Notes under the pieces: generated by a model
Seen by the model: only the letters and a program-made list of their open reading frames with translations
Databases searched by the model: none
What the model was told of the DNA's origin: nothing
Part shown: positions 19,231-45,633 of the stretch, in pieces
How positions within the stretch are numbered: the stretch's first letter is position 1
Layout: each line of letters starts with the position of its first letter
Program-made: the position numbers and the translations under genes
NCBI RefSeq assembly: GCF_003019035.1
Contig: NZ_CP027447.1
DNA from: Escherichia coli
GTDB lineage: Bacteria; Pseudomonadota; Gammaproteobacteria; Enterobacterales; Enterobacteriaceae
Strand: one strand, 5' to 3'
Length of the DNA stretch: 64,000 nucleotides

Positions 19231-19294
19231 GCCGGGCACATTTTTAGACTTTGTCATCAGTCTGAGCCTGCCATTGGCAGGCTCCGGTGTTCTT

Positions 19295-20638: not shown

Positions 20639-20978
20639 AACGTTTTTACCTTACCTGGTTGAACCGTTGTTATTTTGGGCGACATGTTATGTAAATTGGT
20701 CAACCATTGTTGCGATGAATGTCACATCCTCTGATCAATAACCATCGATTACCCTTTGCTGCAATTTGCAGCAACAACCATGAGAGTGAAATTCTTGTGA
20801 TGTGGTTAACCAATTTTAGAATTCGGGTTGACATGTCTTACCAAAAGGTAGAACTTATACGCCATCTCATCCGATGCAACGCCACGGCTGCGGTCTGGTT
20901 GTTCATCCGGATACCTAAACAACTCCGGGGCTCCACGTCTCTTTGCTGTGGAACCCACTATGTGAAAGAGGAAAAATC

Positions 20979-26873: not shown

Positions 26874-29255
26874 TTAGTGGGAGGTTCTGATTGCTGCTTT
26901 CAAGGCCGGAAGCCGGGACGGACTGGCACTGAGCTTATCAATCCCCATGGTGAGCAGTCGTGCTGTTTGCTGGGTATCTCCAGCCATTTCGCCGCACATA
27001 CTGACCGGAATTTCATTATTACGTCCGGCCTGACACACCATAGCAATAGCGTTAATCACCGCGTCATTACGATAATCGACCAGTTCCGCGACGGTGCTAT
27101 TTCCTCTGTCTGCCGCCATAATATATTGCGTCAGATCGTTGGTGCCGATGGAAAAGAAATCGACTTCACTGGCTAATTTTTCTGCAATCATGACTGCAGC
27201 AGGAACCTCAATCATAATTCCCAGCGCCGGAAGATTTTCTGCAGTAAGTCCCAGCAGTTTTGCCTGCGTTTGTATCAGCGTTTTGACGGCGTTGACCTCC
27301 TCGAGCGTTGAAACCATCGGCAGCATAATTTGCAGCGTTGGGTATTCTTTCCCGGCCCGGAGAAGTGCGCGTAATTGCGGAATAAATATTTGCGGATGCG
27401 CCAGGCACAACCGGATACCGCGAAGTCCCAGGAACGGGTTGTCCTCTGCGGGTAAAGGGTACGAAGGTAATGGCTTGTCACCGCCAATATCCAGAGTGCG
27501 GATGGTGACTGGTTTATCGCCAAAAGCCTGAGCAACAGAACAATACACGCGAAACTGCTCTTCTTCATCGGGTAATGTTGCAGACTCATGGAATAAAAAC
27601 TCTGTGCGCAGTAAACCCACGCCCTCAGCCCCGTGAGATAGCGCAGCCTCAATATCTTGCAGGTCACCAATATTCGCCAGCACGCTGATTTTTCGCCCAC
27701 CTTGCGTGACAGCGGGCAGCATGGCATCAGCTAACTGACGATCCCTTTGTTGCCGCCATGCTTCGGCGCGTTGCAGTAAATCCAGGCGGGTGACCTCATC
27801 CGGCTGTAGCCACAAACGGCCTGTTTCACCATCAAGAATGACTGTGTCGTTATCGCGGACGTTTTGCGGGGTAATAGCTGCCTTCACAATGGCAGGAATA
27901 CCCATTGCTCTGGCAAGGATCGCTGTATGTGAAGTTGTTCCGCCATTATGAAGACAAATGCCAAGAATGTGTGCTTTATTCAGGCTGGTTATCTGTGATG
28001 GCAACAGATCGTTGGCTAACAAAATGCAGGGCGCGGTAGTAATAAAGTGTTGTTCACTTACCCCGCAAAGCTGGTTCAGTACCTGACGTGTAAGGTCACG
28101 GATATCTGCCTCGCGTTCACGTAAATACAGTGTTTCCGCCTGACAATATTGCTCTGCTAATGCCTGCATGACTTCTAACCATGCGAATTCCGCCTGTTTG
28201 CCCTTTGCCAGACGTTGCTGTAATTGCCGGTTAATCTTTGGATCTTCAAGCATCATTTTATGGGCGGCAAAAATATCGCCTTCAGGGCCTGCCGCTTTAT
28301 CGGCAAGTTCACAAACAACAATGTCGATAGCAGACTCGATTCGCGACAGCTCTTCTTGCGGAGAATCGACGGTGCGCTGCGTAATTTCTGGTCGTTCGCA
28401 GGTAAACCATTTAACAGGACCAATAGCGATACCATTTTGTACTGACAAGCCTGATATTGCGCCATCAACAGGGGCGCTGACCACCGGCGTTTCCGTTAGC
28501 GGAATCTCTGAAGAAGCGAGCAGGTGAGCTTCACCAAAATGATTTTTCGCCAACGTTTCAATTGCCTTGAGAGCGTCACTGGCATCGGTGCCTTCGGCCT
28601 GGAAGATGATTTCATCGCCACAGCGGACGCCCAGCATTGCCAGTTCGTTGAGACTGCGGGTGCTGGCGCGTTTATCGCCTTTGATGACGATAATGTTTGC
28701 CGAAAATTGTGCGGATACTTTCAGGATGCTGGCTGCCGGACGAGCATGAATGCCGTGGGGATTACGTATCGTCCAGCAAAAAGTTTGCCATTCATCGCAA
28801 TGATTGATTGGTGATATTGCTGGAATAACCTCGCCTGCAGTTGAGGATGGCGTGAGTTGCTGCTGTTTAGCACACAGCGCAAGATCCACTTCAGCGATAA
28901 TCTCCGTCACCGAAAGCCCCGCTGCGGCAGACGTTACCGCTGACATGGCACCTTCCACTACAGGGGCGGCGAGCAGATAAATTGCACTTCTTTGCTCTTC
29001 AGAAAGCAGCTCCAGCGCCATCTCGGTACTAAGCAGCGCACTGCCCATATCCATGAGTACCAGAACGCCATCCGGTGACCAGACCGATTCAATCGCAGAC
29101 ATAATGGCAATAGCATCAGTGCCAATCGGATTTTGCGGATCATCAATACCTGCAGCAATGGCCAGAGGAACGTCCCCTCCAGACATCTGTAGTGCTAATT
29201 CCTCAACCCCCTGGGCGAGACGTAGACTATGAGAAACAATAACAATGGCAACCAT
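26874..29255 (-). CDS. DhaM-like PTS multiphosphoryl transfer protein (EIIA-Man-like, HPr-like and full Enzyme I domains)
   Basis: N-terminus MVAIVIVSHSLRLAQGVEEL...IAAGIDDPQNPIGTDA closely resembles DhaM. HPr-like HGIHARPAA. EI-like GGTTSHTAILARAMGIPAIV and PEP-utilising C-terminal region. 793 aa. Confidence 0.75.
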   Translation of the reverse strand: MVAIVIVSHSLRLAQGVEELALQMSGGDVPLAIAAGIDDPQNPIGTDAIAIMSAIESVWSPDGVLVLMDMGSALLSTEMALELLSEEQRSAIYLLAAPVVEGAMSAVTSAAAGLSVTEIIAEVDLALCAKQQQLTPSSTAGEVIPAISPINHCDEWQTFCWTIRNPHGIHARPAASILKVSAQFSANIIVIKGDKRASTRSLNELAMLGVRCGDEIIFQAEGTDASDALKAIETLAKNHFGEAHLLASSEIPLTETPVVSAPVDGAISGLSVQNGIAIGPVKWFTCERPEITQRTVDSPQEELSRIESAIDIVVCELADKAAGPEGDIFAAHKMMLEDPKINRQLQQRLAKGKQAEFAWLEVMQALAEQYCQAETLYLREREADIRDLTRQVLNQLCGVSEQHFITTAPCILLANDLLPSQITSLNKAHILGICLHNGGTTSHTAILARAMGIPAIVKAAITPQNVRDNDTVILDGETGRLWLQPDEVTRLDLLQRAEAWRQQRDRQLADAMLPAVTQGGRKISVLANIGDLQDIEAALSHGAEGVGLLRTEFLFHESATLPDEEEQFRVYCSVAQAFGDKPVTIRTLDIGGDKPLPSYPLPAEDNPFLGLRGIRLCLAHPQIFIPQLRALLRAGKEYPTLQIMLPMVSTLEEVNAVKTLIQTQAKLLGLTAENLPALGIMIEVPAAVMIAEKLASEVDFFSIGTNDLTQYIMAADRGNSTVAELVDYRNDAVINAIAMVCQAGRNNEIPVSMCGEMAGDTQQTARLLTMGIDKLSASPSRLPALKAAIRTSH

Positions 29256-29258: not shown

Positions 29259-29891
29259 TTATCCCGCGAATCCTTCCTGCATAGCCTTAATCATCAGCCA
29301 GGAGGAGGTCGCGCCTGGATCCTGATGGCCCACACTGCGAGCGCCGAGATAACTGGCACGTCCTTTTTTCGCCTGCATATTGATGGTGTTATCGACGGCT
29401 GTTGCCGCATCTTGCACCATCGTATTCAGCAGAAGGGAAGGCGACATTCCGGCTTGCAGGTTCTTTTTGGCTTCGTGGAGAACTGGAACCCAGACATCAC
29501 ACAGAGTTTTATCCCTTTGTTCTGCTTTTCCTCGTGCGATAACGCCTGCAATCCCTTCTTCCAGACACGCCAGCCACTCTTCCAGAGTTAATTCTGTTCT
29601 GGCTCCCACTGCCGCAGAAGCGCGAATAAATAATGTGCCGTAAAGAGGACCACTGGCACCGCCAACGCTGGAAAGTAGTTTCATGCCAGTATTTTTAAGA
29701 ATATTGCCAATATGCTGACGTTCAATGTCGGGCAACGTCGCTTTCACTGCACTGAAACCACGATTCATATTGAGGCCGTGGTCGGCATCACCAATATCTC
29801 TGTCAAGTGCGGTTAGAAAATCTTGTTGTTCAGTGAGATGTGCAGCACAACTCTCCAGCCAGGCAATAACATGTTTGTTTTGAATTTTCAT
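29259..29891 (-). CDS. Dihydroxyacetone kinase ADP-binding subunit DhaL-like
   Basis: 210-aa ORF with ...DRDIGDADHGLNMNRGF... DhaL signature; sits between the DhaK-like and DhaM-like genes. Confidence 0.8.
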   Translation of the reverse strand: MKIQNKHVIAWLESCAAHLTEQQDFLTALDRDIGDADHGLNMNRGFSAVKATLPDIERQHIGNILKNTGMKLLSSVGGASGPLYGTLFIRASAAVGARTELTLEEWLACLEEGIAGVIARGKAEQRDKTLCDVWVPVLHEAKKNLQAGMSPSLLLNTMVQDAATAVDNTINMQAKKGRASYLGARSVGHQDPGATSSWLMIKAMQEGFAG

Positions 29892-29903: not shown

Positions 29904-30974
29904 TTAACATCCCCAACGAAGCGCTGGCGTATTGACCGGGGCATCCCAAAGTTGCAAAAACTCTGGGGTACATTTCAGCAGGCTGATGGAAAATCCGGCC
30001 ATATCTAATGATGTACAATAATTACCGACCAACTGGCGGCTAATTTTAATTCCCTGGCGCTGTGCGGCGCACATAAATACCCTGGCTACACCATATAACT
30101 CTGATTCAGGCGTGCTGCCAAGTCCGTTAATTAACACAATATATTCGGCATTTTGATCGAATGACTCATTCATTGATGATGCGTCAATCCATCCCCCCGC
30201 ATGGCGATCCCAATGGCGTAATGTGCGTCGCCAGGGGGTATTATCCAGTAATTGCGCTATCACGCTGTCGATTAAAGTGTTCAGATCTTGCAAAGTGCGG
30301 CGTTCAATGCCGGGTTCACCGTGGATCCCGACACCAAATTCGATTTCATTATCAGCCAGTTCAAATGAGGGTTTTCCCGCGGCGGGAACCGTACAGGCTG
30401 ACAGTGCGATGCCAAAAGAACGGGTGGCATTGTTAACATTTTTGCCAAGTTGCTCGCACTGCCCCAGGTTATATCCCTGAAGTGCAGCCGCACCGACAAT
30501 CTTTTCAACAAAAACTGTACCCGCAACACCGCGACGTCCGGCTGTATACAGGCTATCTTTTACCGCTACATCATCATCAATAATGACGGTCCCAACGGCG
30601 ATGCCTTCTTCGTGTAACATCTCGACTGCCGTTTCGAAATTCAGAATATCGCCTGTGTAATTTTTGATGAAAAACAGAACGCCAGAACCATTATCAACCG
30701 CTTTGGCACATTCGATCATTTGATCTGGCGTGGGCGATGTGAAGATTTCACCAGGACATGCACCGGTTAACATTCCCATACCGACAAAACCTGCATGCAG
30801 TGGTTCATGGCCTGAGCCGCCGCCTGAAATCAGCGCCACTGCATTATCGGTTTGTTTGCACCACACATATCGGGGCGCGTAATTTGCCTGCAGGTGTGGC
30901 CAGGTGGCGATGAGTCCTTCCATTTGTTCTGTGACAACAGAATCAATCTGGTTAATTAATTTCTTCATAGTCAT
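29904..30974 (-). CDS. Dihydroxyacetone kinase substrate-binding subunit DhaK-like
   Basis: 356-aa ORF with ...ISGGGSGHEPLHAGFVGMGMLTGACPGEIFTSP... DhaK signature. Confidence 0.8.
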   Translation of the reverse strand: MTMKKLINQIDSVVTEQMEGLIATWPHLQANYAPRYVWCKQTDNAVALISGGGSGHEPLHAGFVGMGMLTGACPGEIFTSPTPDQMIECAKAVDNGSGVLFFIKNYTGDILNFETAVEMLHEEGIAVGTVIIDDDVAVKDSLYTAGRRGVAGTVFVEKIVGAAALQGYNLGQCEQLGKNVNNATRSFGIALSACTVPAAGKPSFELADNEIEFGVGIHGEPGIERRTLQDLNTLIDSVIAQLLDNTPWRRTLRHWDRHAGGWIDASSMNESFDQNAEYIVLINGLGSTPESELYGVARVFMCAAQRQGIKISRQLVGNYCTSLDMAGFSISLLKCTPEFLQLWDAPVNTPALRWGC

Positions 30975-31293
30975 TCCTGTTCTGATAAATTACGTAAATC
31001 GCGCTAAATATGTTTGCGAGATTAATTCTCCAGCCGCAATAAAACAAATCGCACGATAATAAGATTCATAATGAAACAGTTAATTCATGGTGTTGTTTCA
31101 AAATGAAAAGGGACCAGTATGGATATTGATATATTGTGATTAAGGCATGAAAAGTGTTTTTTATTATCATCTGCAGATGATGTTTTTTACAGCGCGATCA
31201 TAAAACATAATTTTTCGCGAATGAAATGTTTGCCGCCACTGGATGCAACGAGTAGGTTAACAGTGAAGCAAAACAAGTTACGCGAGGAATGAT

Positions 31294-32376
31294 ATGGATA
31301 AGATTATTATAAGTCCGGCTAAATATATCCAGGGAAATGGTTCTCTGGATAATATTGCTACATATGCGGCGAGTTTGGGAACAGAACCATTAATTATTGC
31401 AGATGAATTTGTGACCGGTCTGGTTGGTGACAGAGTAAGCCAGAGCTTTGCAAGAGAAAACATTATTGCGGATCTTGATGTTTTTTGCGGTGAATGCTCG
31501 CAAAATGAAATTTCTCGAATTCGTGAGAAATTTAATCAGCGTAAATATAATGTCGTTATTGGTATTGGCGGCGGTAAAACGTTGGATACGGCAAAAGCCG
31601 TAGCGTATTACCAAAAAATTCCGGTGGTGGTGGTGCCGACAATTGCTTCCACAGATGCGCCAACCAGTTCTCTGGCAGTAATTTACACCCCGGAAGGCCA
31701 GTTTAGCGAATATCTGTTTTTCCCGAAAAACCCGGATATGGTGATTATGGATACTGGCGTCATTTCAGCCGCGCCAGTGCGTCTGCTGGTGGCCGGTATG
31801 GGAGATGCATTGTCAACCTGGTTTGAGGCGAGAGCCAATCAGGCGTCAGGAAAAGCCACAATGGCAGGTGGGGCGTCGACACTGGCGGCACTGGCTATTG
31901 CCCGACTCTGTTATACCACGCTACTGGAAGATGGCTATAAGGCAAAAGTCGCGGTTGAACAAGGTGTTAGCACCAAAGCGGTAGAGAATATTATCGAAGC
32001 TAATACCTATCTTAGCGGCATTGGATTTGAAAGTAGCGGCCTGGCGGCAGCTCATGCCATTCATAACGGCATGACGCAACTGGAGGAATGCCATCATTGC
32101 TACCACGGTGAAAAAGTGGCATTTGGCGTCCTGGTACAGCTCGTACTGGAAAACGCACCACAGGAGGAAATTGAAACCGTACTCAATTTCTGCCATAGCG
32201 TTGGTCTGCCGACAAATCTTCATATGTTAGGCGTGAAGGAAATTAATAAAGATAAATTACGGGCAGTGGCTGAAGCAGCGACTGCTGAAGGGGAAACTAT
32301 CCATAATATGCCATTCGTAGTAACAGCGCAGGACGTTCTTTGCGCAATTTTAACTGCACATCATTTGGGACTTTAA
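31294..32376 (+). CDS. Glycerol dehydrogenase-like iron-containing alcohol dehydrogenase (GldA paralogue)
   Basis: 360-aa ORF, MDKIIISPAKYIQGNGSL... similar to the GldA N-terminus; divergent from the dhaKLM-like operon. Confidence 0.75.
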   Translation: MDKIIISPAKYIQGNGSLDNIATYAASLGTEPLIIADEFVTGLVGDRVSQSFARENIIADLDVFCGECSQNEISRIREKFNQRKYNVVIGIGGGKTLDTAKAVAYYQKIPVVVVPTIASTDAPTSSLAVIYTPEGQFSEYLFFPKNPDMVIMDTGVISAAPVRLLVAGMGDALSTWFEARANQASGKATMAGGASTLAALAIARLCYTTLLEDGYKAKVAVEQGVSTKAVENIIEANTYLSGIGFESSGLAAAHAIHNGMTQLEECHHCYHGEKVAFGVLVQLVLENAPQEEIETVLNFCHSVGLPTNLHMLGVKEINKDKLRAVAEAATAEGETIHNMPFVVTAQDVLCAILTAHHLGL

Positions 32377-32443: not shown

Positions 32444-33712
32444 ATGACCAGTAACTGGAAACGTTGGATCACGCTGGCGTTATGTGGTATTGCCGGAAGT
32501 GCAATATATAAATTGCCTTATTTACGGGAAACCTATTACGACGCGATGCAGCAGGCTACAGGAGCGACTAATGCTGAACTTGGTTTTCTAATGACAGCCT
32601 ATGGTCTGGTGAACTTTTTATTATATCTACCTGGCGGTTGGGCTGCCGATAGATTTTCTGCACGTAAATTAATGACCTTTTCATTAATTTCCACCGGGAT
32701 AAGTGGTTTTTATTATGCGACCTTCCCCTCGTATACTATGATCTGTTTGTTACATGCACTTTGGGCTGTTACAACCGTATTTACGTTTTGGGCCGTGTGT
32801 GTGCGAATTATTCGTACCCTGGGAACCAGCGAAGAACAAGGTCGCTTATACGGTTACTGGTTTCTGGGTAAGGGATTAACCTCCATTGTACTGGGATTTC
32901 TTTCCGTGCCGGTATTTGCCAAATTTGGCGAAGGTGTTGATGGTTTACGGGCGACAATTATTTTTTATTCCGTAGTGACTATTCTGGCCGGTGTTTTAGC
33001 TTGGTTTGTTTGTCAGGATGAAACGCACAGCGAAGATAAAGCGAATTTCCGTCTGGCAGATATGGCATTCGTGCTGAAAATGCCGACGGTTTGGCTGGCA
33101 GGTGTTGTGACCTTTTGTATGTGGTCAATTTATATCGGCTTTGGCATGGTCACGCCGTATCTCACGCAGATCCTGCATATGGGCGAATCGGAAGTGGCAG
33201 TTGCCAGTATTCTTCGCGCCTATGTGTTATTTGCGATGGGGGGATTAATTGGCGGACAACTGGCCGACCGCTGTGCGTCACGCACGCGTTTTATGATTTA
33301 CGCCTTTATCGGCATGATTGTCTTTACTACCGTTTATTTCTTCCTGCCCGGTGAGTCGCGCTACGTCACTATTGCGCTGGCGAATATGGTTGCGTTGGGC
33401 GTGTTTATTTACTCTGCGAATGCCGTGTTCTTCTCAATTATTGATGAGGTTCGGATCCCGGCAAAAGTCACAGGGACTGCTGCGGGTCTGATCTCTTTAC
33501 TGACTTATTTCCCGGAAATCTACTGCTACACGATGGTGGGCAATATGGTCGACCGCAAACCGGGTATTGCCGGTTATCAGGATGTTTTCCTGTTCATGTT
33601 GGTTTGCGCATTCATCGGCCTTATCGCCGCACTGGTCCTCCAGCGTGTGAATCGTAAAAGTAAAAATCAAGTCAATGAAATCACTGAAAACAATGCGGAT
33701 TGCGCATCCTGA
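32444..33712 (+). CDS. MFS-type transporter
   Basis: 422-aa polytopic hydrophobic ORF. Confidence 0.65.
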   Translation: MTSNWKRWITLALCGIAGSAIYKLPYLRETYYDAMQQATGATNAELGFLMTAYGLVNFLLYLPGGWAADRFSARKLMTFSLISTGISGFYYATFPSYTMICLLHALWAVTTVFTFWAVCVRIIRTLGTSEEQGRLYGYWFLGKGLTSIVLGFLSVPVFAKFGEGVDGLRATIIFYSVVTILAGVLAWFVCQDETHSEDKANFRLADMAFVLKMPTVWLAGVVTFCMWSIYIGFGMVTPYLTQILHMGESEVAVASILRAYVLFAMGGLIGGQLADRCASRTRFMIYAFIGMIVFTTVYFFLPGESRYVTIALANMVALGVFIYSANAVFFSIIDEVRIPAKVTGTAAGLISLLTYFPEIYCYTMVGNMVDRKPGIAGYQDVFLFMLVCAFIGLIAALVLQRVNRKSKNQVNEITENNADCAS

Positions 33713-35094
33713 GTCTGACGGGGGAACCAATGGTGGACATGATTAATGAAAGTGCACGGCAAACGCCAGTCATTGCACAAACGGACGTTCTGGTTATCGG
33801 GGGCGGTCCGGCAGGATTAACGGCGGCGATAGCGGCGGGGCGGCTAGGTGCCAGAACCATGATTGTTGAGCGTTACGGCTCACTAGGCGGCGTATTGACG
33901 CAGGTTGGTGTGGAAAGTTTTGCCTGGTATCGCCATCCGGGGACGGAAGATTGTGAAGGGATTTGTCGTGAATATGAAGGCCGCGCGCGAGCATTGGGCT
34001 TCACGCGACCAGAACCTCAGTCAATTAGCGAAGTTATAGATACTGAAGGATTTAAAGTTGTTGCCGATCAGATGATAACGGAAGCTGGCGTTGAGCCGTT
34101 ATATCACTCCTGGGTTGTGGATGTGATCAAGGAAGGGGATACGTTATGCGGTGTTATTGTCGAGAACAAATCAGGACGAGGGGCAATTCTGGCGAAAAGA
34201 ATCGTCGATTGCACGGGGGATGCTGATATTGCTGCTCGTGCAGGCGCGCCCTGGACGAAACGGGGAAAGGACCAACTGATGGGCGTCACCGTGATGTTCA
34301 GTTGCGCAGGTGTCGATGTGGCGCGCTTTAACCGTTTTGTTGCGGAAGAACTTAAGCCGACCTACGCGGATTGGGGAAAAAACTGGACGATTCAAACCAC
34401 GGGCAAAGAAGACCAGATGTTTAGCCCTTATATGGAGGATATTTTTACCCGGGCGCAGCAGGATGGTGTGATTCCAGGCGACGCCCAGGCGATTGCCGGA
34501 ACCTGGTCAACCTTTTCTGAAAGCGGCGAAGCGTTTCAGATGAATATGGTGTACGCCTTTGGTTTTGACTGTACCGATGTCTTCGATTTAACCAAAGCAG
34601 AAATCGCCGGAAGGCAGCAAGCATTATGGGCAATTGACGCTCTACGCCATTATGTTCCGGGCTTTGAAAATGTACGGTTACGCAATTTTGGCGCCACGCT
34701 GGGTACACGTGAATCACGGCTTATTGAGGGGGAAATACGTATTGCTGATGATTACGTCCTTAATCAGGGGCGTTGTTCGGACAGTGTAGGGATTTTCCCG
34801 GAATTTATTGATGGTTCCGGTTATCTCATTTTGCCAACGACCGGGCGTTTCTTTCAGATCCCCTATGGCTGTCTGGTGCCACAAAAAGTGGAGAACCTTT
34901 TGGTCGCCGGTCGCTGTATTTCCGCAGGCGTAGTTGCACATACTTCTATGCGCAACATGATGTGTTGTGCCGTTACCGGTGAGGCCGCAGGCACTGCCGC
35001 CGTGGTTTCGCTACAGCAACATTGCACCGTGCGTCAGGTTGCTATCCCTGATTTGCAAAACACGCTGCAACAGCAGGGCGCACGTCTGGCATAA
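33700..35094 (+). CDS. FAD-dependent oxidoreductase (paralogue 1)
   Basis: N-terminal dinucleotide-binding motif DVLVIGGGPAGLTAAIAA; about 460 aa; paralogous to 44263..45633. Confidence 0.7.
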   Translation: MRILSLTGEPMVDMINESARQTPVIAQTDVLVIGGGPAGLTAAIAAGRLGARTMIVERYGSLGGVLTQVGVESFAWYRHPGTEDCEGICREYEGRARALGFTRPEPQSISEVIDTEGFKVVADQMITEAGVEPLYHSWVVDVIKEGDTLCGVIVENKSGRGAILAKRIVDCTGDADIAARAGAPWTKRGKDQLMGVTVMFSCAGVDVARFNRFVAEELKPTYADWGKNWTIQTTGKEDQMFSPYMEDIFTRAQQDGVIPGDAQAIAGTWSTFSESGEAFQMNMVYAFGFDCTDVFDLTKAEIAGRQQALWAIDALRHYVPGFENVRLRNFGATLGTRESRLIEGEIRIADDYVLNQGRCSDSVGIFPEFIDGSGYLILPTTGRFFQIPYGCLVPQKVENLLVAGRCISAGVVAHTSMRNMMCCAVTGEAAGTAAVVSLQQHCTVRQVAIPDLQNTLQQQGARLA

Positions 35095-35146
35095 CAACAA
35101 GGCGCAGAGAGCTGAAAACCTGTCTGCGCCTTGCAGGAGAAAGACC

Positions 35147-35371
35147 ATGAGGGATGATGACCTTGAGCACTTAAGTGCCAATTACTGGATAACCACAGTT
35201 CTCTGCGGCCTCTTTTTGGGGATATTCCTGTTCATGCTGCAACAGCATCAGTGTGGTTTAGCTCTGTATTGTATTGCGGTACTTTCACTTATTTGCGCCT
35301 TTTTTTCTTTACGCCTTTCCCGACAATTGCAACACATGAAAAAGGAACGGCGAAATATTCGTCCTCATTGA
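35147..35371 (+). CDS. Small putative membrane protein
   Basis: 74 codons from an ATG preceded by aggaga; one or two hydrophobic helices. Weak support. Confidence 0.3.
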   Translation: MRDDDLEHLSANYWITTVLCGLFLGIFLFMLQQHQCGLALYCIAVLSLICAFFSLRLSRQLQHMKKERRNIRPH

Positions 35372-35394
35372 ATGAAAACATTCAGGAGACTGAA

Positions 35395-36936
35395 ATGCAA
35401 TATTTAAAAAAACGCTTTTCTTTGATTGAACTGAATGTGTTTATCCCAGCAATATTATTTATTGCGGTAATCATTCTGTGTTTGACGATATATCCACAAG
35501 ATACCAGCCGGTATATAAATAAAATACATCATTTTTTAACCTGGGAAATGGGCGGGATTTTTCTGGTCATGACTTTTCTGGTTGTACTTTGTTGTCTGTG
35601 GCTGGCCTTCTCACGTTATGGCGATATCTTGTTAGGTCAGTCGGGAGAAAAGCCTGACTTCAGCTTGTTAACCTGGCTTGGACTTATTTTTACTTCTGGA
35701 ACGGGGGGCAGCTTGTTATATCTGGCCTCTGTAGAGTGGATTTGGATCATTCAGCAACCGCCTTTTGGCGCGGCAGCAGGAAGCGCTCAGGCTGCTCGTT
35801 GGGCCTCTGCTTATGGCATGTTCCATTGGGGGCCGTCCGCATGGGCATGGTATCTGATTTGTGCCGTTCCCATTGGTTGGTTTATGCATGTTAAGAAAAC
35901 GAACTCATTAAAGGTCAGTGATTTATGCCGTGGGTGTCTGGGGGCACGTGCTGATGGTTTTTGCGGGCATTGTGTGAATTTTTTCTACATGTTTGGTTTG
36001 CTCGGCGGCGCGGTAACGTCTCTGGCGCTGGGAACGCCGATGATTTCTGCCGTATTTTGCCATGTGTTCCATCTGGATCCTGCCGGGCAGTTTATCAATG
36101 TCATGGTTATTTTTATCTGGACGCTAGTGCCATTATTAATTCTCTTTTTTGGACTTAAAAAAGGTGTGGCATGGGCCAGTAACTGGAATATTCGTGCCGA
36201 TATTTTTATGCTACTGGCAATACTGATTTGTGGACCGACAGCTTTTATACTTAACCAATCAATTGATGGTTTCGGCCTGATGCTGCAAAATTTTGTAGCG
36301 ATGAGTTTAAGTACCGATGCTATTGGTCGTAGCGGATTTCCACAGATGTGGACCGTATTTTATTTTTCATGGTGGGTCGTGTATGCCATCCCATTCGGTT
36401 TATTTATCGCCCGTATTTCAAAAGGAAGGACGATCCGGCAATTGATTGTATGTGGAACTCTGGCAGGTTCATTGGGATGCATGGTTTTTTACATGGTACT
36501 GGCTAATTTCGGCTTATCGTTGCAGACAACTCATGTCATCGATTTTGTTCCCATACTTAACGAACAAGGGCGAGGCGTTGTCGTTTCTCGTTTACTGGAG
36601 CAGCTACCCGCAAGTCAGGTGTTTTTGGTTGCTTTTGGGGCTATAGCATTAATTTCATATATTACCGGACACTGTACTGTGGGTTATGCCCTCGGTTTTG
36701 CGACGCAAAAACGGGCAGATAGTGAGAGTGAACCGGCATTCTGGAACGTGGCATTTTGGTTGATTATGACCGGAATCGTCGCCATCACACTCTATCTTCT
36801 TGATGCGCAAAGTCTGCAACCGCTACAAACGGTCTCTATACTGGCCGGACTACCGCTTTGCGGCGTAGTGTTTATTTTATTGAAGAGTTTTTTGACACAG
36901 TTTGCGGCTGAAGAGAAAACCGCGAGAGATGAATAA
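35395..36936 (+). CDS. BCCT-family transporter
   Basis: ORF track 35251..36936, trimmed to the Met at 35395 (aggaga SD upstream). BCCT-like signature ...FYFSWWVVYAIPFGLFIARISKGRTIRQL... Confidence 0.7.
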   Translation: MQYLKKRFSLIELNVFIPAILFIAVIILCLTIYPQDTSRYINKIHHFLTWEMGGIFLVMTFLVVLCCLWLAFSRYGDILLGQSGEKPDFSLLTWLGLIFTSGTGGSLLYLASVEWIWIIQQPPFGAAAGSAQAARWASAYGMFHWGPSAWAWYLICAVPIGWFMHVKKTNSLKVSDLCRGCLGARADGFCGHCVNFFYMFGLLGGAVTSLALGTPMISAVFCHVFHLDPAGQFINVMVIFIWTLVPLLILFFGLKKGVAWASNWNIRADIFMLLAILICGPTAFILNQSIDGFGLMLQNFVAMSLSTDAIGRSGFPQMWTVFYFSWWVVYAIPFGLFIARISKGRTIRQLIVCGTLAGSLGCMVFYMVLANFGLSLQTTHVIDFVPILNEQGRGVVVSRLLEQLPASQVFLVAFGAIALISYITGHCTVGYALGFATQKRADSESEPAFWNVAFWLIMTGIVAITLYLLDAQSLQPLQTVSILAGLPLCGVVFILLKSFLTQFAAEEKTARDE

Positions 36937-36991: not shown

Positions 36992-38134
36992 TTAACTCAG
37001 GACTGCATGAAAATACCCTGCCAAATTTTCTCCGAGACGAATTAAATTATTTTCCCCCTGACTCAGCGCGGTGGGTAAATCACAAGGACCATTGACGACG
37101 GAAAAACAGGCTTCGATTCCACACTGGCGTAACTCATTCAAATCAAGTTGATCATCGATATACCCGGCAATTGCGATAACCGGAACGCCCATCATCTGGG
37201 CGATTTTGGCCGCCCCCACAGGTGCTTTGCCATTCAGGCTTTGACGGTCTAATTTACCTTCACCGACAATCGCCAATGCTGCATATTTTAAATGTTGGGT
37301 ATATTGAATCGCTTCCAGCACGAGCGAAATACCCGGTTGTAAGCGAGCATCGAGAAAAGCCATCAAGGCCGCGCCAACGCCGCCAGCCGCCCCAGAACCG
37401 GGTATCGTATCGACTTCTTTACCACAACAACGGTAGATGCAACGGGCATAGTTTTTCATTCCCTGTTCCAGTTGCTCAAGGTTGTCAGCACTGGCCCCTT
37501 TTTGTTGAGCAAAAACCCGAGTCGCGCCGTTATCGCCGGTTAGTGGGTTGGTGACATCACAGGCTGCAATAAATTTCACATTTTTCAATCGTGGATCGAG
37601 GTGCTGTAAGTCAATGTGGTGAATTGCCGCCAGCCCCATCCCATTAACGGAGACTGATTGCCCTTCGGCGTCTGTAAACGATGCGCCAAGTGCCGACATC
37701 AACCCAATACCGCCATCATTTGTAGCACTGCCACCCAGGCATAGAATAACGGTATCAATATTGTGTTCCAGGGCGGCGAGAATAAGTTCGCCAGTGCCAA
37801 ACGACGTCGTATAAAGGGGAGAACGCTGGACAGGAGAAACCAGTTCCAGCCCTGAAGCTTGTGCCAGTTCTATCACTGCGGTGGTTTGGTTGCCTAAAAT
37901 ACCGTATTGCGCATGTATTGATTCTCCAAGCGGTCCGGTGACTTTTTTAGTGTAAAACGTACCGTCAGTCGCATGAATGAGTGTTTCGAGCGTGCCTTCG
38001 CCGCCGTCAGCCACGGGCAAACACACCAGTTGGCTGCCAGGCAGGACCTTGCGCCAGCCGGTTGCCAGCGCTTCGGCGACTTTCCATGCGGGAAGGCATT
38101 CTTTAAAGGAGTCGGGGGAGATAACTATCTTCAT
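36992..38134 (-). CDS. Glycerate kinase (GlxK/GarK family)
   Basis: 380-aa ORF, MKIVISPDSFKECL... typical glycerate kinase N-terminus. Confidence 0.8.
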   Translation of the reverse strand: MKIVISPDSFKECLPAWKVAEALATGWRKVLPGSQLVCLPVADGGEGTLETLIHATDGTFYTKKVTGPLGESIHAQYGILGNQTTAVIELAQASGLELVSPVQRSPLYTTSFGTGELILAALEHNIDTVILCLGGSATNDGGIGLMSALGASFTDAEGQSVSVNGMGLAAIHHIDLQHLDPRLKNVKFIAACDVTNPLTGDNGATRVFAQQKGASADNLEQLEQGMKNYARCIYRCCGKEVDTIPGSGAAGGVGAALMAFLDARLQPGISLVLEAIQYTQHLKYAALAIVGEGKLDRQSLNGKAPVGAAKIAQMMGVPVIAIAGYIDDQLDLNELRQCGIEACFSVVNGPCDLPTALSQGENNLIRLGENLAGYFHAVLS

Positions 38135-38208: not shown

Positions 38209-39096
38209 TTATTTACGGATAGTGAAATTGGCTTGTGTTTCAAGCGCCCGAATTAGCGCAGAATGATCCCACTCTTTACCACCAAGCGCGGCGCAGGCGC
38301 TAAATAATTGTTGCGTCATAGCCGTGTTAGGAAGCGGGGTATTCAACAGGCGAGCATTCTCCAGTGCCAGATTCAGATCTTTTTGATGCAGGCTAATTCG
38401 AAAACCAGGGGCGAATGTCCCTTTGATCATCCGTTCGCCATGAACTTCCAATACACGAGAGGAAGCAAAACCCCCCATCAGAGCTTCACGTACGCGGGCG
38501 GGATCGGCACCTGATTTACTGGCAAAAAGCAGGGCTTCAGCCACCGCTTCAATATTCAGTGCAACAATAATTTGGTTAGCGACTTTGCACGTTTGACCAT
38601 CACCGATGTTACCGACCAGAGTGATATTTTTACCCATCAATTCCAGAATCGGTTTGATCTGTAAATAAACCTCTTCACATCCGCCAACCATAATGGAAAG
38701 CGTCCCGGCTTTCGCGCCAACTTCACCGCCAGAGACGGGCGCATCGATATATTCCGCGCCTCCCGCGATAATACGTTGTGCAAATGCTTTGGTGGCAACC
38801 GGGGAAATTGAACTCATATCAATGACAATTTTCCCGTGGCTTAAACCGTGTATTACGCCATAGTTGGGATGAAAAAGAACATCCTCAACATGTGGGGTAT
38901 CAGGGAGCATGGTGATGATGACCTCACACTCCTGCGCGACTTCACGCGGTGTAGAGCAAACAATGCCACGTTCACCAATAAGCTCTTGCGGTGCAGGTTC
39001 AAAATGCGCTGAAAAATAAAGAGTATGTCCGGCTTGTTGTAAATTATAAGCCATCGGCTTACCCATTATGCCGGTGCCGATAAATCCAATATTCAT
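38209..39096 (-). CDS. Tartronate semialdehyde reductase-like (GlxR/GarR family)
   Basis: 295-aa ORF, MNIGFIGTGIMGKPMAYNL... NAD-binding motif. Confidence 0.75.
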   Translation of the reverse strand: MNIGFIGTGIMGKPMAYNLQQAGHTLYFSAHFEPAPQELIGERGIVCSTPREVAQECEVIITMLPDTPHVEDVLFHPNYGVIHGLSHGKIVIDMSSISPVATKAFAQRIIAGGAEYIDAPVSGGEVGAKAGTLSIMVGGCEEVYLQIKPILELMGKNITLVGNIGDGQTCKVANQIIVALNIEAVAEALLFASKSGADPARVREALMGGFASSRVLEVHGERMIKGTFAPGFRISLHQKDLNLALENARLLNTPLPNTAMTQQLFSACAALGGKEWDHSALIRALETQANFTIRK

Positions 39097-39113: not shown

Positions 39114-39896
39114 TTAAAATTGAGTCTCGTTTTTTAGCCAGCGTAGACTTTCAGTCGTTGTCGTAGATGGAATATATTCGCAACCAATCCATCCCTGATA
39201 ACCAATCTGGTCTATATAATTTAACAACCACGGGTAATTAATTTCTCCCGTCCCTGGTTCATGACGCCCAGGGTTATCGGCTAATTGAATATGTCCAATG
39301 TTATTCAGGTTGTTTTTGATTGTTGTAGCAATATTCCCTTCCATGATTTGCATATGATAAATATCGTATTGGTAGCGCAAATCAGGATGTTTTACATCAT
39401 GAATAATATTGAGAGCTTGTCTGGTATTGTTAACAAAAAAACCGGGAATATCTTTTGTATTAATGGCTTCCAGAACTAACTTTATCCCATGAGAAGCCAA
39501 TTTATCTACCGCATAGCGCAAATTTTCGACCAGTGTTTCATGACATTGTTCATGCGAATAACCACCTGGATGTTTTCCTGCAAGGCAATTAACTTGTGAA
39601 CAATTAAGGGCCAATGCATACTCTATTGCCCTGGAAACGCCCTCCTGAAATTCTTTTGCCCGACCAGGATGACATGCAATACCCCGTTCACCCTCTTGCC
39701 AGTTACCCGCAGGAAGATTAAACAGAACCTGCGTCAGATTATGTTGATGCAGTTGCGAAACTAACTCATCTGCAGAAAAGTCATAGGGGAAAAGATACTC
39801 AACGCCGTGGAATCCTGCGTGACTTGCCTGTGCAAAACGTTCAATAAATGGATACTCGGTAAAGAGCATAGATAAATTTGCTGCAAACTTTGCCAT
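39114..39896 (-). CDS. Hydroxypyruvate isomerase-like (Hyi family)
   Basis: 260-aa ORF; TIM-barrel isomerase-like; positioned between the gcl-like and glxR-like genes as in the K-12 gcl operon. Confidence 0.7.
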   Translation of the reverse strand: MAKFAANLSMLFTEYPFIERFAQASHAGFHGVEYLFPYDFSADELVSQLHQHNLTQVLFNLPAGNWQEGERGIACHPGRAKEFQEGVSRAIEYALALNCSQVNCLAGKHPGGYSHEQCHETLVENLRYAVDKLASHGIKLVLEAINTKDIPGFFVNNTRQALNIIHDVKHPDLRYQYDIYHMQIMEGNIATTIKNNLNNIGHIQLADNPGRHEPGTGEINYPWLLNYIDQIGYQGWIGCEYIPSTTTTESLRWLKNETQF

Positions 39897-39908: not shown

Positions 39909-41648
39909 TTATAAATCGAGAATTTCTTCAAATTCTGTGACTTTATTAATGTCAGGTCCCATAGCGATATTAGTCACGCGTTCAGTAATAATTTCCACAA
40001 CAACAGGTACGTGAAATTCGTCACGCAAACGCTGGGCTTCTTGCAGTGCAGGCGCAATATCCTGTGATGCGAATACGCGAATCGCTTTACATCCTAATCC
40101 TTCAACCACAGCTTTATGATCAACGCCATAACCATTAATTTCTGGAGCATTAATATTTTCAAATGACAGTTGAACGCAATAATCAATATCAAATGCACGT
40201 TGTGATTGACGAATCAAACCAAGATAAGCGTTGTTAAGTAAAATATGGATATACGGAAGATTAAATTGTGCGCCGACGGCTAATTCTTCAATCAAGAATT
40301 GAAAATCGTAATCACCGGATATTGCCACAACGGGAACAGATGGATCAGCTTTTACCGCGCCCAGTGCTGCGGGCATTGTCCAGCCTAGCGGCCCAGCCTG
40401 ACAGGCATTAATCCAGTGGCGTGGGCGGTAAACATGTAAAAATTGGTTTGCGGCGATTTGCGCCAGACCAATTGTCGAAATATAGCGTGTCTCCGGTCCG
40501 AAAACCTTATTCATTTCGTGATACACGCGCTGCGGTTTAATTGGATTGCAGTCAAAGTCTGAACGACGAAGCATTGTGCGTTTACGCTCGGCACATTCGG
40601 CAATCCAGCGACTGCGGTCTTTCAGTTCTCCACGTGACTTCATATCACGGGCGACCTGAATAAATAGCGTTAAGGCGCTTTCAGCATCAGAAACAATGCC
40701 CAGATCCGGCGCAAATATCCGGCCAATTTGTGCAGGTTCGATATCAACATGAATGAATTTGCGGCCTTCGGTGTAGGTCTCAATGGCTCCGGTATGACGG
40801 TTTGCCCAACGGTTACCGATACCAAAAACAAAATCGGAGGCCAGATAACTGGCGTTACCATAGCGATGACCCGCCTGACATCCCATGCGACCAATCATTA
40901 GGGGATGATCATCTGATAATGCGCCCCAACCGCGTAAGGTTTGAATGACGGGAACGCCAGTTAACTCGACAAACTCACGCAACAATTCACTCGCTTCGGC
41001 GTTAATAATGCCACCGCCAGCGATGATGACGGGCTTTTCGGCGCCATTTAGCATTTCTAATGCGCGTACGGCCTGGGCCCGTGTTGCCTGAGGTTGCCAG
41101 GGGGTTAGTGGCTGATAGAGATCGATATCAAACTCAATTTCGGTCATCTGAACATCAAAAGGGAGATCTAAAAGAACCGGGCCAGGGCGGCCTGAACGCA
41201 TTTCCCAGAAGGCTTTCTGGAATATCCCCGGCAACTGACCCGCTTCGAGAATTGTGCGAGCCATTTTGGTTACTGGCGTGGCGATAGCCTCAATATCGAC
41301 GGCCTGGAAATCTTCTTTATGAAGTTTTCCTACGGGAGCTTGACCAGTAATGCAGAGAATAGGAATGGAATCCGCGGAGGCGGAATAAAGCCCCGTAATC
41401 ATATCAGTGCCCGCAGGGCCTGATGTGCCAATACACACGCCAATATTGCCATTCTGACTGCGGGTGTAACCTTCAGCCATATGCGAGGCGCCCTCAACAT
41501 GACGGGCCAGAATATGATCAATACCGCCTGATTTTTTCATCGCGGCATAGAGTGGGTTGATTGCTGCGCCGGGTACACCAAAAGCAACGCTAATGCCTTC
41601 TTTTTTCAGTATTTCTACTGCAGCTTCGATTGCACGCATCCTCGCCAT
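39909..41648 (-). CDS. Glyoxylate carboligase-like ThDP enzyme (Gcl paralogue)
   Basis: 579-aa ORF; N-terminus [64 protein letters not shown] parallels E. coli Gcl, including Val51 where other ThDP enzymes have the catalytic Glu. Confidence 0.75.
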
Positions 41649-42026
41649 ACATTATTTCTCCTGATATTTACGCTGAGTTGAATAGTCAGTCAATTTTGGA
41701 ATTTAACGACGAAATATCTTTGAGGAAATAAAAGGGCAGAACAAATTTCGCTGCACTGTTTCACAGTGAAACAACTCGTATGCCTGTGTTGTTTCAGTTT
41801 GAATAATGATAAATATCAAACGCAAAGATTTCAGATGTTGTTGGCAGTTTTAAAATTTATCTAATGTATTATTCGTTTTTTATTGCTTTAACGGTTATTC
41901 TTTCTAATGTATGTATGGTTACATTGTTGATAAGGTCTGTTTTTGTAATGATCCAGACTAGATATTATTGCGTTTGATCAAGCTTACTGGCATAGCATTC
42001 TGATACAAGTTCTGAAAATGACTTGA

Positions 42027-43976: not shown

Positions 43977-44262
43977 TGCTTTTCAAATTGAAAGAATTTT
44001 AATATCGCAGTGTTTCATTTTGATGCAGTGCTTTAATGGTATTGAAATATTGTGATGTGCTCCATAAATGCCAATGTGGTTATTAGCCAGGGAGACGGAA
44101 AATGTGTTTACACTCCTGAAATAATAAAAAATAGGCAAAGAGAGATGATCTCCTTGTATGTCTGTATTAGCATGATGTTGCTTGTTAATAATTAAAAATA
44201 TCAACGCGCTTATATAAGCGCGGGGGATTGTTTTACTCAATTATTGAATACGGAGATAAAGT

Positions 44263-45633
44263 ATGGAATTTTATCTGGAACCCGCTCGTAATATACCTGT
44301 ACTGGCAACCACGGAAGTGTTAGTTGTTGGTGGTGGTCCATCGGGTATTGCCGCAGCAATGAGTGCCGCTCGTGAAGGCGCAGCTACTATGCTGATTGAA
44401 CGTTTCGGTTGTTTTGGCGGAATGATGACAACGGCTGGCGTCGAGTCAATTGCCTGGTGGCGTCATGAAAATACGGTAGAGTCAGGTGGACTGGCACGCG
44501 AAATAGAAGAAACGGCAAAATCAATGGGGGCGTCCAGCCCTGAGCCGCAATCGAATAGTCAGGCTATTAACGCCGAGCGTTTCAAACTGGTTGCGGATGC
44601 AATGCTTGAACAGGCAGGTGTGCGCCGCGTACTACACATTACCGCCGTTGATGTTATTAAGCAGGGCAATAATTTACTCGGCGTAATAACAGAGAGTAAA
44701 TCTGGTCGTCAGGCTATTTTGGCGAATGTCATTATTGACTGTACTGGCGATGCCGATATTGCATGGTTTGCCGGAGCACCATTTATTAAGCGTGAACGTG
44801 AAGACCTGATGTGTATGACAACCGTTTTTAGTTGCGCAAATGTCAATAAAAACGCGTTCATGCAAAATATTAAGAGCACGGAACCTAAATATGGAGACTG
44901 GGGGGCGGATGAAGAAAATAAAAACTGGTCTTATGATGTTCATGAATCTTGTCGCGATATGTTTAGCCCTTATCTGGGTAAAGTCTTTGCGAAAGGAAAG
45001 TCGGCAGGAATTATTCCAAAAGATGTGACGTTAGGCGGTTCCTGGAGTACGGTCACCGAGTATGGTGATGCGAATTACTTGAACGTTGTCAGCATCCCTG
45101 CCGTCGATTGTACGGATGTTTTTGACCTGACGCGTGCAGAAATAGAAGGCCGCAAGCAAGCCATGCAGGCGATTGAAGCGTTGCGTCAATTCCAGCCAGG
45201 ATTTGAACAGGCACAATTAAAAAATTTCGGTATGACGGTGGGAACAAGAGAATCAAGACATATTATTGGGCGAGTCCAGCTTACGGAAAATGATATTTGT
45301 AATGAGGGACGTCATGCGGATTCAATAGGGGTATTCCCTGAGTTTATAGATGGAAATGGTCATCTTAAATTACCTCTTGAAGCGAACTATTTTCAAATCC
45401 CTTATGGCGTAATGATTCCGCAGCAAGTTGAAAACCTGTTGGTTTGCGGACGGGCAATCGATGCAGATAATTTCGCCTATGCGACAATCCGTAATATGGG
45501 GTGTTGTATTGTCACTGGAGAAGGTGCAGGGACTGCCGCTGCTATTGCCATTAAAAATAACACTACCGTTTCACAGGTAGATATTCAGACGGTACAGGAA
45601 CGCTTACAGCAAAATGGCGTAAAAGTCTTTTAA
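44263..45633 (+). CDS. FAD-dependent oxidoreductase (paralogue 2)
   Basis: 456-aa ORF, EVLVVGGGPSGIAAAMSAA...; clearly paralogous to 33700..35094 along the whole length. Confidence 0.7.
   Translation: MEFYLEPARNIPVLATTEVLVVGGGPSGIAAAMSAAREGAATMLIERFGCFGGMMTTAGVESIAWWRHENTVESGGLAREIEETAKSMGASSPEPQSNSQAINAERFKLVADAMLEQAGVRRVLHITAVDVIKQGNNLLGVITESKSGRQAILANVIIDCTGDADIAWFAGAPFIKREREDLMCMTTVFSCANVNKNAFMQNIKSTEPKYGDWGADEENKNWSYDVHESCRDMFSPYLGKVFAKGKSAGIIPKDVTLGGSWSTVTEYGDANYLNVVSIPAVDCTDVFDLTRAEIEGRKQAMQAIEALRQFQPGFEQAQLKNFGMTVGTRESRHIIGRVQLTENDICNEGRHADSIGVFPEFIDGNGHLKLPLEANYFQIPYGVMIPQQVENLLVCGRAIDADNFAYATIRNMGCCIVTGEGAGTAAAIAIKNNTTVSQVDIQTVQERLQQNGVKVF

Follow-up and report, generated by a model that had tools for sequence, protein, structure and literature searches.

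We analysed a 64,000-nucleotide stretch of Escherichia coli DNA (contig NZ_CP027447.1 of RefSeq assembly GCF_003019035.1; hereafter the window) that carries two paralogous genes for oxidoreductases dependent on flavin adenine dinucleotide (FAD). The locus is GimA, an island known from extraintestinal pathogenic E. coli (ExPEC), and the two flavoenzyme genes are cglE and ibeA. By comparing sequences and gene orders, we show that CglE and IbeA represent two anciently separated orthologous groups, and that each flavoenzyme group is genetically locked to its own predicted importer. The resulting transporter-plus-flavoenzyme cassettes appear as swappable add-ons in Enterobacterales, Vibrionaceae, an alphaproteobacterium and a Firmicute. 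The constant core to which they are added is a putative glycerol dehydrogenase and dihydroxyacetone (DHA) kinase; glyoxylate carboligase, hydroxypyruvate isomerase, tartronate-semialdehyde reductase and glycerate kinase are often encoded there too. These conserved neighbourhoods point to a nutrient pathway controlled by dihydroxyacetone rather than to a surface invasin.

As a virulence marker, ibeA is in wide use for E. coli of the neonatal-meningitis, avian-pathogenic and adherent-invasive types. The paralogue pair is in itself not new, and the remaining interest lies in the chemistry of a clinically used marker. Importer-locked orthologous groups, their association with glycerol dehydrogenase, DHA kinase and glyoxylate genes, and a shared DhaR-type candidate operator bear on a 25-year-old question, that of the enzymatic role of IbeA and of whether the virulence phenotypes are metabolic. 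The comparison also flags a large conserved flavoenzyme family without a characterised member.

CglE and IbeA are anciently separated homologues

The two flavoenzyme genes and the transporter genes that follow them are:

33730..35094, plus strand: cglE, PF12831 FAD-dependent oxidoreductase, first paralogue, 454 aa; orthologues at 68-80% identity always adjoin a BCCT gene (the open reading frame (ORF) was listed from TTG 33700; the RefSeq start maps to ATG 33730)
35395..36936, plus strand: cglC, BCCT transporter that keeps the CaiT-type Trp box (BCCT/CaiT NCBIfam models and CaiT alignment)
44263..45633, plus strand: ibeA, PF12831 FAD-dependent oxidoreductase, second paralogue, 456 aa
45648..47051, plus strand: ibeT, NhaC-family transporter (TIGR00931, 381.4 bits against a cut-off of 370; ArcD-like, 291 bits)

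An earlier note, made from the letters of this DNA, had claimed that the two oxidoreductases are similar along their whole length. BLASTP bore this out, with 231 identities over 452 positions (51%), 70% positives and 7 gaps (E 4e-162), and the N- and C-terminal peptides quoted in that note are present in both products. Each protein covers the whole of the Pfam model PF12831 (FAD_oxidored, positions 1-416 of 416), IbeA with residues 18-448 (E 1.1e-93) and CglE with residues 19-446 (E 6.8e-97). The similarity extends far past the common N-terminal GxGxxG dinucleotide-binding motif (VLVVGGGPSG in IbeA, VLVIGGGPAG in CglE).

The same note had read the locus as a duplicated module. This overstates the case: only the oxidoreductase is duplicated, and the two transporters, which as the note had said are of different type (BCCT after cglE, NhaC-family after ibeA), are unrelated to each other. 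We also rejected a duplication of the oxidoreductase inside the island, as each paralogue is closer to its orthologues in other genera than to its partner. IbeA is 89% identical to its counterpart in Citrobacter, 86% in Pluralibacter, 77% in Serratia and 68-69% in Vibrio and Photobacterium; for CglE, identity to proteins from Vibrio, Pseudovibrio and Endozoicomonas is 68-80%. The family alignment held 77 and later 183 members, and the phylogeny that the earlier note had called for, a neighbour-joining tree of the 183 sequences, agrees: both proteins are true homologues in separate monophyletic clades (32 leaves for IbeA, 12 for CglE). Their common ancestor covers 172 of the 183 sequences, a divergence like that of any two core-family members.

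A third clade groups proteins from Pseudovibrio (locus L013) and Citrobacter sp. NCU1 with two metagenomic proteins, at 72-75% identity to the L013 protein. At the 47 positions with clade-specific residues among these three clades, no charge or aromatic switch pattern was found. In Vibrio, Photobacterium, Pseudovibrio and Chloroflexi, the CglE-type enzyme is accompanied by a fourth, distant PF12831 paralogue (~27% identical, 425-445 aa), found in L003 (5056-6784), L087 (11444-13109), L090 (12993-14658), L095 (7898-9602), L077 (11384-12661), L007, L011 and L066. Directly after it, Vibrio and Photobacterium have a gene for a cyclophilin-like protein of 123-126 aa (PF04126). Using tblastn, we found in the window no copy or remnant of the fourth paralogue, of the cyclophilin-like gene, or of the C-S lyase and aminotransferase genes described below, nor any further copy or remnant of a transporter or oxidoreductase.

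Each flavoenzyme group has its own importer

CglE-type enzymes occur with a BCCT transporter in 7 of 7 loci of known context, and IbeA-type enzymes with an NhaC-family transporter in 5 of 5. The pairings are as follows:

CglE type with a CglC-type BCCT transporter (at least 54% identical where measured): E. coli, Vibrio jasicida (L003), Vibrio VB16 (L087), L090, Photobacterium (L095), Endozoicomonas (L004) and Pseudovibrio (L077)
IbeA type with NhaC: E. coli, L003, Serratia (L088), L095 and L096
Third clade with an MFS transporter: L013, Citrobacter (L086) and L089
Oscillospiraceae homologue with a TRAP system, a CaiT-like BCCT gene being nearby: L009

In Chloroflexi the flavoenzyme partners are Opp/Dpp-type ABC transporters, and transporters of this type lie near the gene in ~21 of 88 loci.

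CglC is 31% identical over its full length to CaiT of E. coli K-12. Its best NCBIfam matches are full-length hits to BCCT/CaiT models, all below the curated cut-offs, and a CaiT equivalog assignment was rejected (391 bits against a cut-off of 541); homologues at 50-58% identity carry PF02028. CglC keeps the CaiT Trp-box motifs of transmembrane segments 4 (FHWGP..W..Y) and 8 (WTVFY..WW..Y), with a conserved WTVFY.SWW signature. The FHWGP and WTVFY residues are those which we take to form the trimethylammonium box of the CaiT structures. Unlike the L-carnitine/gamma-butyrobetaine antiporter CaiT, whose partners are the CoA-dependent Cai enzymes, CglC has no cai or fix genes nearby and is partnered with a PF12831 flavoenzyme. 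As for IbeT, passing the NhaC Na+/H+ antiporter cut-off gives a family assignment only.

The locus is a copy of the published GimA island

The pairing of cglE and ibeA is real but already known and annotated, and the window holds a copy of a published island. The earlier note had overlooked GimA, and with it the identity of one paralogue as the virulence gene ibeA; positions 44263-45633 are 99.6% identical to genes annotated ibeA, for which the RefSeq product name is 'putative intracellular survival FAD-dependent oxidoreductase'. [quoted passage not shown] According to the RefSeq annotation of SMS-3-5, the region lies at the GimA insertion site, between iraD (yjiD) on the left and hypT (yjiE) on the right. 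Its order is ptsP-dhaL-dhaK; glycerol dehydrogenase, MFS transporter, FAD-dependent oxidoreductase and BCCT transporter; glycerate kinase, 2-hydroxy-3-oxopropionate reductase, hyi and gcl; and dhaR, ibeA and nhaC. For each gene the NCBIfam assignment agrees with RefSeq, and the content is that of the four GimA operons, which two papers (PMC2878320; PMC8618662) name as ptnIPKC, cglDTEC, gcxKRCI and ibeRAT. Compared with GimA of E. coli K1 RS218/APEC (Huang et al. 2001; Homeier et al. 2010, PMC2878320), the insertion site, operons and genes are the same, the guanine-plus-cytosine (GC) content is likewise ~46-48%, and there is no structural difference.

Among 5426 complete E. coli genomes, ibeA and cglE occur together, each in 246 and always as one chromosomal copy, with at least 95% DNA identity for ibeA in all carriers. 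Genomes that cover 80% or more of the island query of 17.2 kb likewise number 246. Apart from the four genes given above, the island comprises:

26874..29255, minus strand: DhaM-HPr-Enzyme I fusion of the ptn operon, phosphoryl donor of DHA kinase (NCBIfam DhaM domain and PTS EI family; RefSeq ptsP)
29259..29891, minus strand: dhaL paralogue, ADP-binding subunit of DHA kinase (TIGR02365, 246 bits against a cut-off of 138)
29904..30974, minus strand: dhaK paralogue, DHA-binding subunit (TIGR02363, 461 bits against 406)
31064..31108, unstranded: candidate IbeR/DhaR operator, a TTTCA-N3-TGAAA pair in the divergent dhaK/cglD promoter region (31064 with 1 mismatch, 31096 exact; spacing 32 bp)
31294..32376, plus strand: cglD, glycerol dehydrogenase of the GldA type (NF006941, 558 bits against 336)
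32444..33712, plus strand: cglT, MFS transporter that weakly resembles anion:cation symporters (models for PgtP and the galactonate transporter); an orthologue at 82% adjoins gldA in Serratia
36992..38134, minus strand: gcxK, glycerate kinase (TIGR00045, 550 bits)
38209..39096, minus strand: gcxR, tartronate semialdehyde (2-hydroxy-3-oxopropionate) reductase (TIGR01505, 383 bits against 341)
39114..39896, minus strand: gcxI, hydroxypyruvate isomerase (TIGR03234, 390 bits against 353)
39909..41648, minus strand: gcxC, glyoxylate carboligase (NF008431, 1074 bits against 791)
41759..41804, unstranded: palindrome pair in the gcl/ibeR divergent promoter region (41759 exact, 41792 with 1 mismatch; spacing 33 bp)
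42027..43976, plus strand: ibeR, DhaR-type regulator of the enhancer-binding-protein family (NF008485 DhaR, 986 bits against 551; the RefSeq start maps to 42042)
43981..43993, unstranded: exact palindrome TTTCAAATTGAAA upstream of ibeA, with a weaker second copy, seen by eye, ~31 bp downstream

Two known systems of E. coli are close relatives of these genes. GimA has paralogues of the DhaK, DhaL, DhaM, GldA and DhaR proteins of the K-12 dhaR-dhaKLM/gldA system; it differs in that its DhaM is fused to a full Enzyme I, in that IbeR is only 33% identical to K-12 DhaR, and in that its candidate regulon adds two transporter-plus-flavoenzyme cassettes and a glyoxylate pathway. All four enzymes of that pathway score at or above equivalog or family cut-offs for gcl-hyi-glxR-glxK of the E. 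coli allantoin/glycolate regulon. In contrast to that regulon, the GimA genes are tied to DHA genes and PF12831 flavoenzymes, with a candidate operator of the DhaR type, and are not linked to all or glc genes.

Flavoenzyme cassettes adjoin DHA and glyoxylate genes in several genera

Within 10 kb of the flavoenzyme gene, gldA and a DHA kinase are encoded in nine loci from seven genera, in varied gene orders, including:

Pseudovibrio (L013): single-strand run (gcl)-hyi-glxR-glycerate kinase-gldA-dhaK-dhaL-dhaM-FAD oxidoreductase-MFS
Citrobacter (L086): gcl-hyi-glxR-glxK, dhaMLK, then gldA-FAD oxidoreductase-MFS
Serratia (L088): MFS-gldA, dhaKLM, ibeA-nhaC
Firmicute (L009, an Oscillospiraceae metagenome-assembled genome): GlpO-like gene, PocR-like regulator, gldA, fused ATP-type DHA kinase, FAD oxidoreductase, TRAP, BCCT, eutABC-eutL

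The gcl-hyi-glxR genes accompany the flavoenzyme in seven loci, among them L089 (FAD oxidoreductase-MFS-gcl-hyi-glxR), which has no DHA genes. The Serratia and Oscillospiraceae loci have DHA genes and no gcl. In L009, positions 15070-21170 hold the CaiT-like BCCT gene followed by the ethanolamine ammonia-lyase and microcompartment genes eutA, eutB, eutC and eutL, with a GlpO-like glycerol-3-phosphate oxidase gene upstream; this neighbourhood looks like one for the catabolism of phospholipid head groups.

In Halieaceae and SAR92 the homologues lie among betA, betB, carnitine 3-dehydrogenase, a BKACE-family gene, a BCCT gene and a TonB receptor gene, and in four loci an AGXT/PhnW-like class V aminotransferase is encoded directly downstream of the flavoenzyme. 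The Rhodobacteraceae neighbours (proS, hda, ppx and an AI-2E transporter gene) were set aside as conserved housekeeping synteny, which is uninformative.

The metagenomic locus L096 carries, at 5963-8716, an ibeA-nhaC pair (IbeA 76% identical) beside genes for a YeeE/YedE-like transporter, TusA and a selenium/sulfur carrier, and in V. jasicida a PatB-type C-S lyase gene stands between nhaC and ibeA. The sulfur-trafficking genes and the lyase may hint that enzymes of the IbeA clade act on a sulfur-containing substrate. As a core partner of ibeA the C-S lyase was rejected and treated as accessory, since Photobacterium, Serratia, L096 and E. coli showed none.

The cassettes share a DhaR-type candidate operator

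Allowing at most one mismatch, the palindrome TTTCA-N3-TGAAA occurs 12 times in the window, against 4.7 ± 2.1 expected (0 of 100 shuffles). Of the four exact copies, three fall within promoter regions of GimA, namely dhaK/cglD, gcl/ibeR and upstream of ibeA, and the motif search placed a second copy with one mismatch 32-33 bp away in both divergent regions. The fourth exact copy, at 56024, falls inside a minus-strand ORF of 1746 aa (51395-56635; the inverse autotransporter IatD in SMS-3-5) and is presumably due to chance.

The dhaK/dhaR promoter of K-12 has the same pair, with a spacing of 31 bp (L091, 1458-1501). Pairs recur in five other loci (Vibrio VB16, V. jasicida, L090, Photobacterium, with 10 matches against 1.6 expected, and Citrobacter), and the signal is weaker in Serratia. 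There they stand in the gldA/dhaK divergent promoter and upstream of BCCT-flavoenzyme genes, ibeA or NhaC genes, clade-3 flavoenzyme genes, gcl and ibeR homologues. IbeR is a DhaR equivalog by its NF008485 score, aligning at full length, over 614 aa, with K-12 DhaR. From this recurrence we infer that the paired palindrome is a DhaR-type candidate operator, which would place both cassettes in a DHA-responsive regulon. DhaK and DhaL reportedly serve K-12 DhaR as DHA sensors, and we assume the same of their paralogues and IbeR.

Action of IbeR through sigma-54 boxes was rejected: TGGCAC-N5-TTGCA (-24/-12), with up to two mismatches, is absent from all GimA intergenic regions, and its 25 matches in the window compare with 26.7 expected. 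A generic promoter and terminator scan of 29.8-47.3 kb gave promoter-like sites below the shuffle mean and no interpretable terminator-like site. Between ibeR and ibeA, ~40 bp upstream of the ibeA start, lies a perfect GC-rich hairpin (CGCGCTTATATAAGCGCG, 44205-44222). Together with the palindrome at 43981 it suggests that ibeAT may be transcribed apart from ibeR rather than as one ibeRAT operon. In the literature searched, we found no description of this palindrome as a DhaR or IbeR operator, and no discussion of a cglE/ibeA orthology split or of swappable cassettes in other genera.

IbeA and CglE fall into a flavoprotein family without a characterised member

AlphaFold2 models IbeA with confidence (predicted local distance difference test score 87.5, predicted template modelling score 0.90) as a compact, globular flavoprotein, in which a strand (10-22) is followed by a helix (26-37) and the beta-alpha-beta FAD motif starts at residue 17. 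No signal peptide was predicted in IbeA or CglE, and no membrane segment in IbeA. Across 43 homologues 82 alignment columns are invariant, including G23, G25 and G28 and also Cys415, which adjoins the C-terminal FAD-binding helix and is preceded by a nearly invariant Cys414. So many invariant columns suggest that the family shares a common chemistry, with variable specificity.

Foldseek returned no solved structure matching the whole fold, only the FAD domain (template modelling score at most 0.48, identity at most 21%), and a sequence search of the PDB gave matches limited to the N-terminal Rossmann segment (first ~60-170 residues). In comparison with two-dinucleotide-binding-domain flavoproteins of solved structure, namely geranylgeranyl reductases, FixC, urocanate and fumarate reductases, and glycine and sarcosine oxidases, the substrate or cap domain of IbeA is unmatched. 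Membership of the DAO family (PF01266) of glycine/sarcosine oxidases was rejected, as DAO matches span only ~32-35 N-terminal residues (E 0.004-0.009). Every full-fold match in AFDB50 is unnamed or misnamed 'oxidoreductase', with no characterised enzyme among them, and in the literature searched we found no biochemical characterisation of any PF12831 FAD_oxidored member or of this gene-cluster combination.

The family is large, with 4870 matches at E ≤ 1e-20 among 8000 candidates scored and 1377 clusters of 50% identity at E ≤ 1e-30. Homologues are found in Desulfobacteraceae, Anaerolineae, Oscillospiraceae and Lokiarchaeota; because these include strict anaerobes, an obligate oxygenase role is unlikely. 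IbeA-family proteins at 33-47% identity also occur in the marine algae Cladocopium, Symbiodinium, Emiliania huxleyi, Chrysochromulina, Chrysophaeum and Chloropicon (AFDB50 accessions A0A9P1D755, A0A1Q9DVW3, A0A0D3ITC9, A0A0M0LRP5, A0AAD7XTF3 and A0A5B8MN02), two of them being ~750 aa long with an additional region, and rotifers have members at 48-49% identity. The algal homologues suggest a substrate that is common in marine phytoplankton. Fusion proteins were discarded as a clue to function, since extra domains, CBM9-like or unassigned, occur only in distant members (35-36% identical); the CBM9-like domains hint at carbohydrate for that distant subfamily only. A long match in L033 proved to be a split, probably frameshifted gene amid overlapping ORFs rather than a fusion.

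Proposed function of the island and alternative explanations

We consider it probable, from gene identities, neighbourhoods and the shared motif, that CglE and IbeA are two cytoplasmic flavin dehydrogenases, with a different imported solute for each, and that both supply one DHA/glyoxylate assimilation regulon governed by the DhaR paralogue IbeR. The importers would bring in distinct small solutes, quaternary-ammonium or zwitterionic for CglC/CglE and another for IbeT/IbeA. The cytoplasmic flavoenzyme would then dehydrogenate its solute without O2, beside a heteroatom or at a polyol carbon, so that the solute breaks apart. A fragment at the triose level (glycerol, DHA or glyceraldehyde) would pass through GldA and DhaKLM to dihydroxyacetone phosphate and, where present, a C2 fragment (glyoxylate) through Gcl-Hyi-GlxR-GlxK to phosphoglycerate. 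Released DHA would be sensed by IbeR through the DhaK and DhaL paralogues and induce the whole island. The virulence, H2O2 and fimbriation phenotypes of ibeA mutants would be indirect metabolic effects.

For CglE, the link to quaternary amines comes from the Trp box of CglC and from the betA/betB and carnitine dehydrogenase/BKACE neighbours in Halieaceae and SAR92. The earlier note had suggested two related substrates or uptake routes feeding one downstream pathway. Clade-specific importers, the shared gldA-dhaKLM and gcl-hyi-glxR-glxK genes and the common motif, as genomic context and not biochemistry, agree with this reading, which is reasonable and gains strength from them.

Tentatively, it is also possible that the IbeA/CglE family cleaves imported conjugates of the polyol or glyceryl type by O2-independent dehydrogenation, releasing a triose and sometimes glyoxylate. 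The substrate of CglE would then be a quaternary-ammonium conjugate such as the deacylated head group of a betaine lipid, GimA would be a DHA-sensing catabolic regulon under IbeR, and the 'invasin' phenotypes would be metabolic side effects. In the betaine lipid diacylglycerylcarboxyhydroxymethylcholine (DGCC) the head group is an acetal that joins glyoxylate to glycerol and choline; this would cover all three downstream modules in marine members. Speculative candidates include deacylated betaine-lipid head groups, S-glycerylcysteine from lipoproteins, serinol-type amines and N-alkylglycines, any single class of which is improbable.

Several points weigh against an assimilation regulon. Cassettes without DHA genes exist (L004, L077, L089 and L096), and the majority of the 79 GTDB loci, those of marine Rhodobacteraceae among them, show housekeeping synteny without gldA, dhaK or gcl, so the linkage to DHA and gcl genes is lineage-restricted. 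No known natural compound has been shown to fit IbeA or CglE, and binding of the palindrome by IbeR is presumed. Beyond gene identity, the support consists of gene neighbourhood and a DNA motif. A substantial experimental literature also gives IbeA the role of a surface invasin. Elsewhere it is described as a Pfam12831 oxidoreductase that affects H2O2 resistance (PMC8618662), and the role of the IbeA regulon has been called unresolved, a 2026 paper stating that it 'remains elusive'.

One alternative would make the proteins dehydrogenases of amines or 'carboxymethyl-X' solutes, converting N-alkylglycines (dimethylglycine, sarcosine), opine-like compounds or other X-CH2-COO- solutes to glyoxylate and HX, with the glyoxylate pathway as the real route. 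A BCCT partner with a binding box of the quaternary/tertiary-amine type fits it, as do the betA/betB and carnitine-to-betaine genes beside the Halieaceae and SAR92 homologues, the AGXT-like aminotransferase after the gene in four loci, the Opp/Dpp-type transporters, and L089 with its gcl genes and no DHA genes. Even so, we regard it as rather unlikely: it leaves the most consistent linkage, that to gldA and DHA kinase, and the DhaR-type candidate operator upstream of the cassettes unexplained, and the Serratia and Oscillospiraceae loci keep the DHA genes without gcl.

That IbeA is mainly a surface invasin or adhesin, which binds host vimentin, PSF and Caspr1 and triggers NF-kB while the flavoprotein fold and cglE are incidental, we find unlikely. 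Many experimental papers describe receptor binding by IbeA, and invasion or biofilm defects in ibeA mutants (PMC3334993, PMC5033352, PMC13128420), and a 2026 paper still models IbeA as a surface ligand for vimentin. Against this stand the lack of a signal peptide or membrane segment, a Rossmann FAD motif that starts at residue 17 and the compact globular model. In free-living marine bacteria, anaerobes, Lokiarchaeota and algae the family shows 45-55% conservation, and an importer and catabolic genes always accompany the gene. RefSeq names the product an intracellular oxidoreductase, and a review places IbeA among cytoplasmic or periplasmic proteins that affect H2O2 resistance. A moonlighting protein, both enzyme and invasin, is conceivable.

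Quite improbable, in our judgement, are reductases that, as in the reduction of crotonobetaine, fumarate or urocanate, use an imported solute, unsaturated or oxidised, as an electron sink to balance the NADH from fermentative glycerol oxidation by GldA, the transporters being substrate/product antiporters. In its favour, CglC has the carnitine/gamma-butyrobetaine antiporter CaiT as its best NCBIfam match, fermentation of glycerol runs through GldA-DhaKLM, and the family is present in strict anaerobes. On the other hand, a domain search found no electron-transfer flavoprotein, cytochrome or NAD(P)H domain or partner gene for IbeA or CglE, the TRAP and ABC partners are importers and not antiporters, and the gcl linkage would be left unexplained.

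A role as peroxide- or thiol-linked flavoproteins in oxidative-stress defence rather than catabolism is highly improbable: ibeA, ibeR and GimA mutants are more sensitive to H2O2 (Flechard 2012, as cited elsewhere) and Cys415 and Cys414 are conserved as described, but an NAD(P)H-binding domain is absent, solute importers and carbon-assimilation genes invariably accompany the gene, the candidate operators are of the DhaR type with no OxyR or SoxS link seen, and the family is present in strict anaerobes.

Other features of the window

A complete type 1 fimbrial locus (fimB, fimE and fimAICDFGH) occupies positions 10300-19052, ~8 kb upstream of GimA. Mutants in ibeA and ibeT are described, in work cited by PMC8777976, as having lower expression of fimB/fimE and type 1 fimbriae, and the proximity of fim and GimA may or may not matter. 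At 5959-8855, nanC and nanM (sialic acid channel and epimerase) adjoin a sialate O-acetylesterase gene, which is truncated according to the near-identical SMS-3-5 record. Positions 1-4252 are low in GC (33-37%), and their SMS-3-5 counterpart has a DEAD/DEAH-box helicase gene and a UvrD-helicase-domain gene, with ORF boundaries that differ from those of the window at 2204-4252. This end of the window may be a strain-variable region, possibly a defence or mobile one.

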